Source: Hormiphora californensis
Lineage: Eukaryota > Animalia > Ctenophora
NCBI GenBank assembly: GCA_020137815.1
Contig: CM035353.1
Span: 930,001-994,000, forward strand
DNA: 64,000 nucleotides
Direction: 5' to 3'
Shown here: one piece after another, positions 9,401 through 50,300 of the stretch
Layout of the letters: each line of letters begins with the position of its first letter
How positions within the stretch are numbered: position 1 is the first letter of the stretch
Position numbers and translations under genes: made by a program
Notes under the pieces: model-generated
Told to the model about the DNA's origin: nothing
Database searches by the model: none
The model's input: the letters and a program-made list of their open reading frames with translations, nothing else

Positions 9401-12400
9401 CCACCCCCACAATTAGTTTAAGTATTGTAGTGTGTCAGGAATAAATAACTTTTCATTAGTTGTTTAGTTCGAAATGTCGGTGGATTCTGGAGAGATCACG
9501 ACCTCTCTATCTGCCCACAGTTTTACCAATGCTTTCACCATCCATAGATTGGTGGTAATCTACAGTGGGGACAACTACGGTTTTACTGGATTCGATGAAG
9601 CTCTATCCCACCTTCGTAAATACCGGGAGATGGTAGTTGTGGAAAGTCATGTTACTCCCGTAACCGATTCAGACAGAGGTACTGAGAGATTAGCGTAGAG
9701 TCGGGTAACGATCTCTAACGACGCCCTGACAACCCTCTAACAACCCCCTAACAACCCCATAAGTTATGGGCCATAACAACCCCTAACAATAAAAACCCGC
9801 TATAAACCCCTTAAAAACCCCCTAACAACCCCATAACAATTGTTCCAATGTACACAAACATTAGGTATATTTTTGCAGAGTGGGATGAGTTTGAGGATAG
9901 ATTAGATAACAGGATCTATGGTACAGTGACGACATATCTAGTCTGTGTTACACGGGGGTACCTTGTTAGAACACTGGATACTGCTTCAAAGGTGGGTAGG
10001 CGGGGTAGGACATCCTTATTATAAAGTACAAATGCGTGGCGTGATGGTGATGATGTAGTATCCACACGTGCAAATAGAGGGGGGTTGCCAAGGAGGTGGC
10101 TTGGAAGGGGTATTGGAGGGGGATACTGCACGTGCATGTTGTTGGTTATTTGTTGCGTGTTCCTGTGGTGTTTCGTGGTGTTTTAGGATCTACTGCTGGG
10201 GCCCCCATGATTGCCAAAGCCTTTCTACCTACGTACCCCGTTGATTCTCTACACAGCTACAATTCTACGGATCTTCACCACCTGATTCTACATGTTATTC
10301 AGCGGAATTTCCCTTGATGTTTATCACCAGCGCTCTACCACTATACCAACCTCCGTATTCTTTACCCCGACATGGAGAGGCGAAGAGTGAGAGGGGGAGA
10401 GACATAGATACGGGTGGGGGGGGGGCTATTGTAGGACTTCAATGGGCTTTCTAGTCTCTATTATAATTTGCAAATGAACGTCGTGATGAGTATGTAGTAT
10501 CCCACGTGCAAATAGTGGGGGGTTGCCAAGGAGGTGGCTTGGAAGGGGTATTGGAGGTTGTGAGGGGATACTGCACGTGCATGTTTTTGGTTGTTTGTTG
10601 CGTGTTCCTGTGGTGTTTTGGGATCTACTGCTGGGCTCCCATGATTGCCAAAGCCTTTCTACCTACGTACCCCGTTGATTCTCTACACAGCTACAATTCT
10701 ACGGATCTTTATCACCTGATTCTACATGTTATTCAGCGGGATTTCCCTTTATGTGGGATTTCCCTTTATGTTTATCACCAGCGCTCTACCACTACCAACC
10801 TCCGTATTCTTTACCCCGACATGGAGAGACAAAGAGTGAGAGGGGGGCATAGAGACGGGCGGGAGTCTGTTGTAGGACTTAACAATGGGCTTTCTAGTCT
10901 AATATATCACATCAGTTAACAGGCATGATAGTTTAGACATGATGATTACAGAGAAGCAAGTTCAAATATTTCCCGGTAGCTTGGTATGGTAGTTTCCCTG
11001 TTCAATTTATATCAACTTCCCTTGGTAGCTTGGTATGGTAGGAGAAGGTAGTTGGTGGATGTCGTGTGACAGTGCGTTAGAGATGGAAGCATACACAACA
11101 TTATACAAGCATAACACAACCAACAATGCTGCAATCCGGGAGAATCATGGGGACCAGAAGACCGTGCAACTACCCTGGTTTACTGCAGGTACGAGCTGCG
11201 AAACGAAATATTTCCAGTTCGATATTATAAGTTGAATATTATAAGTCTCTCTGCTTGGAACAGTATCGGGTAGATCCGATGATTTGAGTGTCTCTCTCAT
11301 CCAGGTTTGGTGGTATTTGGTGGGCCGTATTCCTACGAGGGGGACCCCTTCCCCGGAACAGCTTATACCCGGGCCCTAGCACGAGACTCTGTATCACTCC
11401 TTCGCAAAGTTATTCCCAATGACCAGCAGATTGATGAGTATACTGGCGGATGTGATATGTCCTCAGGGTTCATCGAACAGTATCCGTTAGGGTAAGTACA
11501 TTCAGCTCTGTTGATGATAATATCGCAAACAGCCCACATGTTTTTTTGAGTAAGAAATCCTTTTTTGTTTTCTCTTGTTCTACTAAAACCAAACTACAAA
11601 AACTTCCCGCTAATCCTACAGAAATGATATAGTGGAAACACTAAAAAGCGTGGATTTTGAAGGAGAAACTGGGAGAATCAGGTTCGGCAGTGATGGAAGG
11701 AGACTTGTTGCTGCAACGACAGCAAACATTTACAACATTGTTGGCAAGAATTCCAAAGATACGCCATCGTGGGATCCTGGGATGTAAAATTGAAACTAAC
11801 CAGAGAGGTCCAGTTTTTCTCCAATGTCCACAGTGAACAGAGGAATCCTACGAGTGGGGATTATACTGGAGAAGCCATTCATTAGCCGGGTAGAAAACTG
11901 TGAGGGCTCAGGAGATCATTGCTTCTCAGGTACCTACTGGACAAATAATGTTGGACCCCTTATTTGACTGATTTATTAATATGCGCCACATAATCACTGC
12001 TTTGCTCTCTAGGATTATCCATTGAAATGATAAGAGAGTTGGCAGCCAGACTGAACTACACTTACACGTTCGTTGAAGTCAAGGAGGCGGGCAGGAAAAT
12101 TGGTAACGACTGGACCGGAATGCTAGGTAGGTGCTGCAGCAGAAACCGTACTGACACAAGTAAACAACCAATCAGAACTCGTTATTTAGGTCACGTGACT
12201 GGTTATCAGCCAATCAGGGACCATTATCCCGGTAAATCGGGGTCCGACTGTATAATTTGTTTAGGAATGTTAAACCGGGATGAGATTGATATCACTGGAA
12301 GTTTGTTTGCCCAGACAATTGAACGAAAATCTGTTGCAGACTTTTCAGCACCACTACTTGACGGAGGTAGGGCATTAGTGTATACAGCAGCTCATGGATT

Positions 12401-47392: not shown

Positions 47393-50300
47393 TTATTTGA
47401 CTTTATGAGATTTCCTCTCCCTACTCGCATCTCCTATTCTATCTTTCTTCCTTTCCTTGGACTTCTCCAGCTGACGGATTTTCTCCTGAATTCGCTTCTG
47501 GTCTTGCATTCGCTTCTTGTCCTCGTGTCTTTTACGTCTCGCCTCAGCAGCCTGGAAAAAGGGGAAAGAATATATAATATTGATTGGACAGTACAGTGCG
47601 GGAACCCTGATTTTATTGTCTTGCTAGACCCTCCATCTTACTGCACTGTAAAGGAGGGTCAGAACATAATATTCGAGCAACAAGGGTGGCAACCCGCTAA
47701 ATAAAAGGGAGGGGATAATATAGATAAACCATCCCTCCGAAGAGAGCGGGGTTTATCAAAAGTCAGGGCGGGAGGGGGAATTATCTACAGCGTGGGGGTT
47801 ATAAACAGCGATTTTACTACCGGAATCAAACAGGTGGCTGTGAAAATAATATCAAATCGTGGCACTTACATGGCCAGGATACATGGTGTGTAACAGGGAA
47901 TGCCAAATGTTAGCACGGGGACGACCCGAAAAAGTGATTTATAATTACCTCACTATCGGTGGAACTGTCATCATGAGAAGATACAGAAACCCGCCTTCTT
48001 GAACGATGCTTATTGTGCCTCCTGGGAGAGGTATCAGACCCTGACAGGGATCTAGATCGGTGCTTTTTACTCCTACTGTACCTAATGGGGTATGTGTTAG
48101 AGCAGTCGTAATATCACAGTAGAATTAATCTCTCCCCCACCCCTCGTTTAAACTTTAATCAGTGTGTACAAAACACTACTACTAACTACCTACCTATCAT
48201 TTTTACGCCGAGGACTGGCCGGACTATATCTTTTCCTGCTAGGACTGTGTTTTCTCCTCCCATTCTTGTATCCCATCCGATCCATTCTTCTGAGTCTTCC
48301 CACTTTCTCTACTATGATGTTCCACGGGTGAGCCATCCTTTGAGGTTTCCTTTTCAGGAACAGGAGAGTAGCTCGGGGTGGATTTAATCACTGAATCCTT
48401 TAGATCCTTCTTAGTTTTCTCATTGAAAGACTTCTTTAGCTCGTATGCTTCCTTCGCAGGCATTTATAGCACGGTCAAGTTTTGCAGTGTCCGGTCGTGG
48501 TAAAGTGTACAGAGTCATGATCGTCTCCGATATTTCAGTGCATGTCTCTTGAGAGCAGTCAAGTAGCTCATACCAGGGGGGACTCTCAGGAAGGACAACC
48601 TGAGAAAGGGTTTAACAGGTTGTAACTTTGTAAACAGCTATGAATTGTAAAATATAAATAACGTCCCAGCCTGTCCAAAACTACTTCCTACCTTTTTCAT
48701 CCTGGCAGCCAGCCAGATACAAGCACACCCAATCTGGTCAGGGGTGTATCGGAGAAACACATCAGTCTTCAGACTATCATTCATGAAGTTCCACGCCACT
48801 TGGATTAGCTCAGTATTCTGCTTCTGTTCCAGAATCAGTGCAAGAACAATAATAATAATCTTGTGGGGATATTTCACGTGCACGCAGAACCCCAGCTCCT
48901 GGAGAGAGAGAGAGAGGTTGGATGGACTGGGGGGTGAGTGGGATTGAGTGTTCCAAGCCCCTCTCTCTCTCCCTCCATCAGCCGGACGCTTTGTTACACA
49001 GAGTTACACGCGCGCGCAAAAGCGAATTGATGGCAATTGCACTTTTCCTCATCTTGTAAGGGCTATTTTGCTAGTCGCGCAGGGGATATTGCAGAATCGT
49101 CCCACCATTCTAGACACATGACGCAGAGATTTACAACAACTCTATAATACTGCTGCTGTGTATCCGGCAGCGTCATCCCCATCCGTCACTTGGTAGTGTC
49201 ACACCTGAAGATATTCCGATGAGTGTAGCTGTGTATGTGTGTAGGGTTGTGTACACAGTTCAACACACGCTGGGGACTGCTTACCGGCTAGGAGGACGGA
49301 GAGAGAGAGAGGCCTGCCCTCTGTGTATAACACTCACCGACCAGTTGAGAGGCGATTTGTAATGTCACCTCTCTGTAAGAAATAATGCGTTAAATCACAT
49401 TCTTTCAGAAAGGTTCGGGTATTTTGTAACACCCTGTATGAGTGTCATGCTTACCTTGAGAAGACGACGTTCAGCTTTGATAATATCATTCTTCATTTTG
49501 ACATAGAGAGAACCGGTAAAATCAAGGGGTACAACCGGCCTGAATAAAGTAGGTTAGAATGGAGGGGAGGAGACCTGGGTAACAACAACAATGGAGTGTT
49601 TAAACAAAGAGTTAGTAAGGTCCTTGGAATAAACCAAATTATGTTGCTAAACGGTTTTCTAGTCTGTTATTTTCTTGCCTGATTAAATATATCAGATAAT
49701 TATTTTCATGATGTGTATTAATACCCCTATGATATGTTATTAACCTCCCCAATAGCAATATATTCATTCGGGAACCGACCGAATCAGGAAATACTAGTCC
49801 CTGATTGGCTGATAACCAGTCACGTGACCTAAATAACGAGTTCTGATTGGTTGTTTACTCACTTTTTCTCCTTGTGTTGTTTGTAGTGATGGAAACAGTT
49901 GATGATATCCCGTACTCTCCTAGGATGCTCTTCCACCTTAGCAGCCAAGAATACAGCCGCCATTGCCAGGTGCTGCGGGGGATTTAGGGGTGATATTAGG
50001 TGCTGCGGGGGATTTAGGGGTGATATTAGGTGCTGCGGGGGATTTAGGGGTGATATTAGGTGCTGCGGGGGGATTTAGGGGTGATATTAGGTGCTGCGGG
50101 GGGATTTAGGGGTGATATTAGGTGCTGCGGGGGAATTTAGGGGTGATATTAGGTGCTGCGGGGGGATTAAGGGGTGATATTAGGGGCTGCGGGGGGATTA
50201 AGGGTGATATTAGGTGCTGCGGGGGGATTAAGGGGTGATATTAGGTGCTGCGGGGGATTCAGGGGTGATATTAGGTGCTGCGGGGGGATTAAGGGGTGAT

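Follow-up and report, generated by a model that had tools for sequence, protein, structure and literature searches.

A short transposable element in ctenophore DNA lies beside 5′ splice sites (donors) far more often than chance would allow. In a 64-kb stretch of Hormiphora californensis contig CM035353.1, referred to as the window, we found eight copies of a 109-bp miniature inverted-repeat transposable element (MITE), and all eight begin 1-28 nt from a donor. The bias is real and unusual, its genome-wide size is uncertain, and "insertion at 5′ splice sites" describes a bias, not a rule. As a rule, intronic transposable elements (TEs) keep away from exon edges. A family of about 1,000-2,000 copies, of which a sizeable share is in donor register, tests the survival of DNA transposons in compact genomes rich in introns. 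The question is whether insertion itself or later selection sets the donor bias; in the former case, the targeting rule is one that we did not find described in the literature searched.

Eight copies of a MITE in six genes

Using nhmmer, we detected eight copies of the element in six genes (E-values from 3e-31 to 5e-20). No further locus was found in the 64 kb at E<0.01, and weaker matches, up to E 0.09, were the same copies on the opposite strand. The 109-bp consensus is non-coding, carries 14-bp terminal inverted repeats (TIRs) and has no match in Rfam at E<=1; individual copies differ from it by 1-5.5%. The element is thus a MITE by its short length, lack of coding sequence and TIRs, together with its target site duplications (TSDs) and high copy number. 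Of the eight, three span the full consensus; the others comprise two without the left end, one missing 16 nt from the right end, one carrying an internal deletion and one whose right end has been replaced. Six copies are in the sense orientation relative to the host gene and two are antisense. The copies and their visible TSDs are listed by window position.

Copy 1, 12140-12227, + strand: sense, in iGluR intron 12127-12264; the tail of a different short repeat (12228-12254) takes the place of the right end; no TSD pair.
Copy 2, 13670-13778, + strand: sense, full length, in iGluR intron 13666-13863.
TSD of copy 2, 13662-13669, + strand: CCAGGTAT, reading CCAG|GTAT across donor 13666 (-4 to +4); perfect, second copy at 13779-13786.
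Copy 3, 19466-19557, - strand: sense, in AHCYL intron 19574-19304, with a 17-nt internal deletion.
TSD of copy 3, 19558-19565, - strand: GTACGAAC, intron +10 to +17 (donor 19574); second copy at 19458-19465, matching at 7/8 positions.
Copy 4, 28417-28525, + strand: sense, in ZnF intron 28414-28782; first bases lost.
Copy 5, 35837-35945, + strand: sense, full length, in UTP3 intron 35809-36110; one difference from the consensus.
TSD of copy 5, 35829-35836, + strand: GTTATGTA, intron +21 to +28; perfect, second copy at 35946-35953.
Copy 6, 39261-39353, + strand: antisense, in NDUFB7 intron 3 (39361-39164; gene on the - strand); 16 nt lost at the right end.
TSD of copy 6, 39354-39361, - strand: GTAAGATC, intron +1 to +8, the donor itself; perfect, second copy at 39253-39260.
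Copy 7, 39871-39979, + strand: antisense, full length, in NDUFB7 intron 1 (39987-39722).
TSD of copy 7, 39980-39987, - strand: GTAAGTGA, intron +1 to +8, the donor itself; second copy at 39863-39870, matching at 7/8 positions.
Copy 8, 49769-49861, - strand: sense, in cyclin L intron 49862-49540; about 19 nt lost at the left end, joined to the donor; no TSD pair.

Our gene models, which comprise 56 introns across 8 genes, were set by reading frame and homology, and the donors of the host introns have the same basis. AHCYL was named from its homologues and NDUFB7 from a Bolinopsis homologue, while Pfam identifies UTP3, iGluR, cyclin and the C2H2 ZnF, with several short exons falling under the curated cut-off. 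The top named homologues, from Mnemiopsis leidyi (AHCYL) and Bolinopsis microptera (NDUFB7), agree with a ctenophore source for the window. Much of a preliminary description of this DNA is borne out by nhmmer, the homologues and Pfam: it had reported eight copies of about 109 bp with TIRs and 8-bp TSDs in six genes, in both orientations, all of them intronic and within 30 nt of a donor.

The copies crowd at donors beyond chance

Measured from the modelled donor G, the first element base lies at 13, 4, 17, 3, 28, 8, 8 and 1 nt in copies 1 to 8. The five visible TSDs, all 8 bp long, start at intron positions -4, +1, +1, +10 and +21. Four of the five start with GT in the sense of the gene, each time after a G, and two of these four are not donors. 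The preference for targets that lead with GT, proposed in the preliminary description, is supported.

Other parts of that description need revision. The duplication of CCAG|GTAT across a donor stands, but exact duplication of the donor occurs in two of the five visible TSDs, both in NDUFB7, rather than in three. The third case had assumed an AHCYL donor at 19565, which we rejected since a donor at 19574 scores higher against three of three homologues (231, 191 and 193 versus 221, 179 and 190). The resulting junction, SISSN|V, aligns without gaps to two of the three, and the AHCYL TSD thus occupies intron +10 to +17. Likewise, the two copies described as fused to donors do adjoin them (3 and 1 nt). 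Both lack their left ends and show short microhomologies in their sequence, and with the left ends lost, their closeness to the donor is partly secondary.

In the ZnF intron that holds copy 4, GTATGTGA occurs twice, at 28414 and, 209 nt beyond the element, at 28735. Judging from the sequence, this pair may be a split TSD, in which case copy 4 may be an eroded third exact donor duplication. The same intron (28414-28782) contains a tandem duplicate of a 48-nt intron end with its donor, giving a cag-G-gt junction at 28732-28736, where use of both sites would define an exon of a single nucleotide.

The window contains 28.0 kb of intergenic and 18.4 kb of intronic DNA, yet none of the eight copies is intergenic (P=6e-4). 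As the preliminary description had noted, the intergenic DNA holds other short repeat families. Donor windows make up 3.2% of non-exonic DNA. The probability that all five TSDs would start between -4 and +21 is 3e-8 to 5e-6 over four target-motif models, 3e-6 to 4e-4 given that the copies are intronic, and 8e-4 given the pre-insertion length of each host intron; these values assume independent copies, which the two same-gene pairs may not be, and the window was chosen for this pattern. The donor bias exceeds what intron length or palindromic motif models would give.

Copies beyond the window

Of 15 sequencing runs, four were placed (DNA runs X2, X5 and X13 and RNA run X8), two of them again on a single-copy reference. 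Placement reports the majority flank of each class, and we describe the 24 of 1,744 rows listed for the first placement, in which flank classes are split among four copies, and the 12 of 44 listed for the single-copy placement. Both organism A and organism B carry the family in abundance. In X2, depth rises to about 115,000 per position, compared to about 95 in single-copy DNA. This step points to 1,200 or more copies whose left end is intact, and simulation suggests about 2,000-2,300.

Across the genome, the target consensus is nTnnnnAn. TSD position 7 is A in 9 of the 9 right-flank classes listed from the three DNA runs, and position 2 is T in all 7 listed classes that are not fixed to another letter. 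The flank consensus is AT-rich, nTAnnTAn. The window TSDs match one half of nTnnnnAn in four cases and both halves in one.

Some flanks also resemble donors, with the limit that a majority flank looks the same for a real donor and a donor-like string. On the single-copy reference, X2 flanks that do not end in C read AAG|GTATCAAG (n=57), and TAC-ending flanks (n=20) read as GTATGT in antisense, its reverse complement; the AC-ending classes have no G at -1 or +1. In X13, from the second organism, AAG|GTA appears in one class (n=78). Purely palindromic target models were rejected, since none of six such models with no donor share produced the joint X2 pattern in any of its 400 replicates. With the plain nTnnnnAn model, the pattern arose in 19-46% of replicates at donor shares of 0.3-0.6, and with the strongest GTAnnTAC model in 0% at any donor share. 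Seven classes jointly fit a donor share of about 0.2-0.3, calculated as a product of values from classes that overlap. Together, these results suggest that about 20-35% of copies, at best, are in donor register.

A pattern scan matched one metagenome contig (L001) and no genome or viral contigs. L001 encodes an uninterrupted open reading frame (ORF) of 377 aa, not assigned to a family, with 16 homologues of 372-432 aa.

What places the element at donors

The explanation that we prefer, and to which we give an even chance, is that donor-side crowding results from a GT-leading target preference, the accessibility of exon edges and selection against acceptor-side or exonic hits. In this scheme, a hAT-like transposase supplied in trans would move the element by cut-and-paste, favoring 8-mers that begin with GT and lie in open DNA along exon edges, where an insertion would cause little damage. 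In the 56 modelled introns, the donor profile is A at -2 in 40, G at -1 in 46, GTA in 43 and A at +7 in 30; at +7, about 53% of element-free donors have A, compared to 31% in the background used, an A-richness that gives donors a likeness to nTnnnnAn targets. With its AG|GTA and frequent A at +7, the ctenophore donor would therefore resemble the preferred half-site and be hit in register. Because three TSDs (-4, +10 and +21) lie close to a donor but are not themselves the donor, a regional cue would also be required, and linker DNA beside short, nucleosome-sized exons is the likeliest candidate (internal exons have a median length of 130 nt). Introner insertions are biased toward predicted linkers (bioRxiv 2022.06.06.494994), and Hermes reportedly prefers nucleosome-free DNA.

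Selection would then remove exonic and acceptor-side insertions. In mammals, TEs near exons are biased to the donor side, which has been ascribed to selection (PMC3088655). As the 8-bp duplication would leave a rebuilt donor on the upstream side of the inserted copy, we predict that introns are still spliced from their original donor. A full insertion adds 117 nt, in frame. Were the downstream duplicated donor used, the added stretch would contain stops in both full-length cases and cause a frameshift in the third. Local hopping may explain why two of the genes each hold a pair of copies. Spread by reverse splicing was rejected on the basis of the TIRs, the 8-bp TSD and the occurrence of both orientations.

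A number of observations weigh against this explanation. Among the read placements listed there are neither RNA junctions nor empty sites, and those listed for X8 (135 contigs placed) include no RNA joint across the eight host introns; one X8 contig ends at an NDUFB7 acceptor, which is a weak hint only. Neither a transposase nor an autonomous partner was found by pattern scans of the genome and viral contigs. The window is probably several-fold richer in copies than the genome average. A donor consensus is lacking in the largest X13 class (n=321) and in two X5 classes (n=149, n=32), and another X13 class (n=118) has G at -1 but A at +1. Simulation of the depth profile, under the aligner scoring assumed, leans tentatively to a low donor share: the observed second ratio, 0.20, falls under almost every simulated value, and models with no donor share match the remaining ratios. 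The diagnostic flank positions were picked after the data were seen. The element copy on L001 (1-65) lies in a 3′ untranslated region (UTR), 14 nt past the stop codon, at a non-donor site. Finally, donors make up 33% of the non-exonic AGGTA sites in the window, such that a one-sided sequence preference would yield part of the signal. Thus, of the earlier statement that the element inserts at 5′ splice sites, the donor bias survives and the generality does not.

Several of these points fit an account without any exon-edge cue, in which a one-sided G|GTA half-site and tolerance of donor-side insertions in short introns (the median is about 200 nt) produce the pattern, inflated by local hopping and by the choice of window. 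It would explain why four of five TSDs start with GT after G, two of them away from donors, and it has a precedent in the donor-side survival bias of mammalian TEs (PMC3088655). It does not readily account for the absence of the element from the intergenic DNA, which spans 28 kb and carries other short repeat families, or for three TSDs in near-donor sites that are not donors, a class that comprises just 2-4% of the non-exonic GGT, GGTA, AGGT or AGGTA sites in the window. The bias also persists when intron length is taken into account. We consider sequence preference plus selection, with nothing further, unlikely.

A more active process has also been considered. The boldest form of this idea is that a ctenophore DNA transposon family reads the 5′ splice site as a landing mark through a splicing-linked tether, with duplication of AG|GT or GT seeding stacked donors, recursive sites and occasional new introns across hundreds of genes; we regard this as improbable. 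As for active tethering itself, in which integration would be directed by the transposase or a host partner that recognizes, at the 5′ splice site, either an R-loop or the U1 snRNP during its co-transcriptional assembly, as an evolved safe-haven strategy, it would suit the peak at exactly +1 with a tail to +21, the restriction to the donor side in both orientations without an intergenic copy in the window, and the donor-like flanks in two organisms. Against it, most copies genome-wide seem to be outside donor register, no transposase was found in which to examine an extra domain, and a second intron-resident family with 8-bp TSDs (see below) has one of its six copies at a donor, pointing to a host-wide effect. 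Tethering is, in our judgment, distinctly improbable.

The element core contains two CCAAT motifs and a CACGTG palindrome, which we take to be CCAAT boxes and an E-box. We give very little credence to the idea that donor-proximal copies were retained by positive selection because these motifs or a hairpin aid expression or splicing: either strand of the copy at 35837 forms a strong fold (z -5.7 and -7.7), but the copy at 13670 folds no better than shuffled sequences (z -0.27), TIRs alone predict a hairpin, and copies decay freely, with four truncated or deleted and 1-5.5% divergence.

Other repeats and features of the window

A second short intron-resident family has TTG...GCAA ends and 8-bp TSDs, and a third family is palindromic.

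16079-16142, 19765-19838, 19374-19446, 34705-34775, 16646-16681 and 56074-56203: TTG...GCAA family; by eye, the TSDs at 16079 and 19765 are perfect.
5943-6026, 41442-41505, 56870-56942 and 12228-12254: palindromic family; one copy is 19 nt from a WDR45 donor, two are intergenic and one is fused to copy 1 of the element.

All six distinct loci of the TTG...GCAA family are intronic and one is at a donor, a rate that favors a host-wide cause over the trick of one transposase. The copy at 34705 starts 8 nt past a UTP3 donor and is flanked by GTAAATAG and GTAAATTT, which may be a second donor duplication. A short repeat around CACGTG at 36272-36325, 11 nt past UTP3 donor 36262, is probably another family, and its ends draw many contigs in read placement.

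The window also includes an intergenic 651-aa open stretch at 22757-24709 encoding a non-LTR retrotransposon reverse transcriptase (Pfam RVT_1); an intergenic element at 37931-38723 with 317-nt inverted arms that are 95% complementary, present at high depth in both organisms; and about 640 bp of a 5-bp satellite (53950-54590), the orientation of which reverses near its end. The iGluR gene (~8295-15990, + strand) is wholly nested, in antisense, inside an 8.6-kb AHCYL intron (7673-16233); such nesting of genes is a common arrangement in a cydippid ctenophore (PMC8527503). Several long exons contain frameshifts that look like assembly indels.

Comparison with known systems

We found no published description of this family, or of any TIR element biased toward donors, in a search that left subscription literature mostly outside; passages of PMC12221973 have nothing on the family. 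Like hobo/Hermes-type hAT elements, the element has short TIRs, an 8-bp TSD (five of five visible pairs) and an nTnnnnAn target, the latter being that of Hermes (PMC10512250; hobo, GTNCGNAC, PMC3276498). It differs in that its end, CAGGA, fits four of the five positions of the YARNG terminal motif and misses the G at position 5 (PMC3014272), and passages on hAT targets describe no donor bias for these elements. MITEs of the P superfamily (BuT5, P element) share the 8-bp TSD and a GT..AC target motif (GTCCGGAC, PMC3276498; BuT5 8-9 bp, PMC3698922). The TSD length fits the 7-9 bp of this superfamily and GT and AC halves are common, but the flank consensus is AT-rich, nTAnnTAn, and the element is 109 bp compared to about 1 kb for BuT5. 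Because YARNG fails at position 5 and the P superfamily shares the TSD length, we call the element hAT-like on its sequence features and do not file it as a hAT member.

In mammals, TEs located <=20 bp from exons are mostly at donors, as here; these TEs are depleted near exons overall, in a survey that excluded DNA transposons (PMC3088655), whereas copies of our element are enriched at donors, often with the TSD in donor register.

Introners (Micromonas type and the families of Gozashti et al.) are similarly MITE-like, with TIRs and TSDs, an aquatic host and TSDs that can supply splice signals (PMC11282704), and the copy at 13670 shares their geometry, with AG|GT on both sides. Introners land in exons and become the intron, whereas all eight copies lie within introns that hold other sequence. 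The host introns are 138-369 nt long, and the five with TSD pairs retain 81-185 nt without the element. As none of the eight copies plus one TSD forms a whole intron, we rejected the possibility that the element is an introner; of the suggestion that it is raw material for introner-type gain, there remains the geometry, with an AG|GT-containing TSD in one of eight copies. The main text of the two introner surveys does not mention ctenophores, and six ctenophore names gave no matches in 12 of the 14 supplement files of PMC12130899. Such surveys filter out insertions into pre-existing introns (PMC12130899), so elements of this class would be missed. The family stands between ordinary MITEs and introners.

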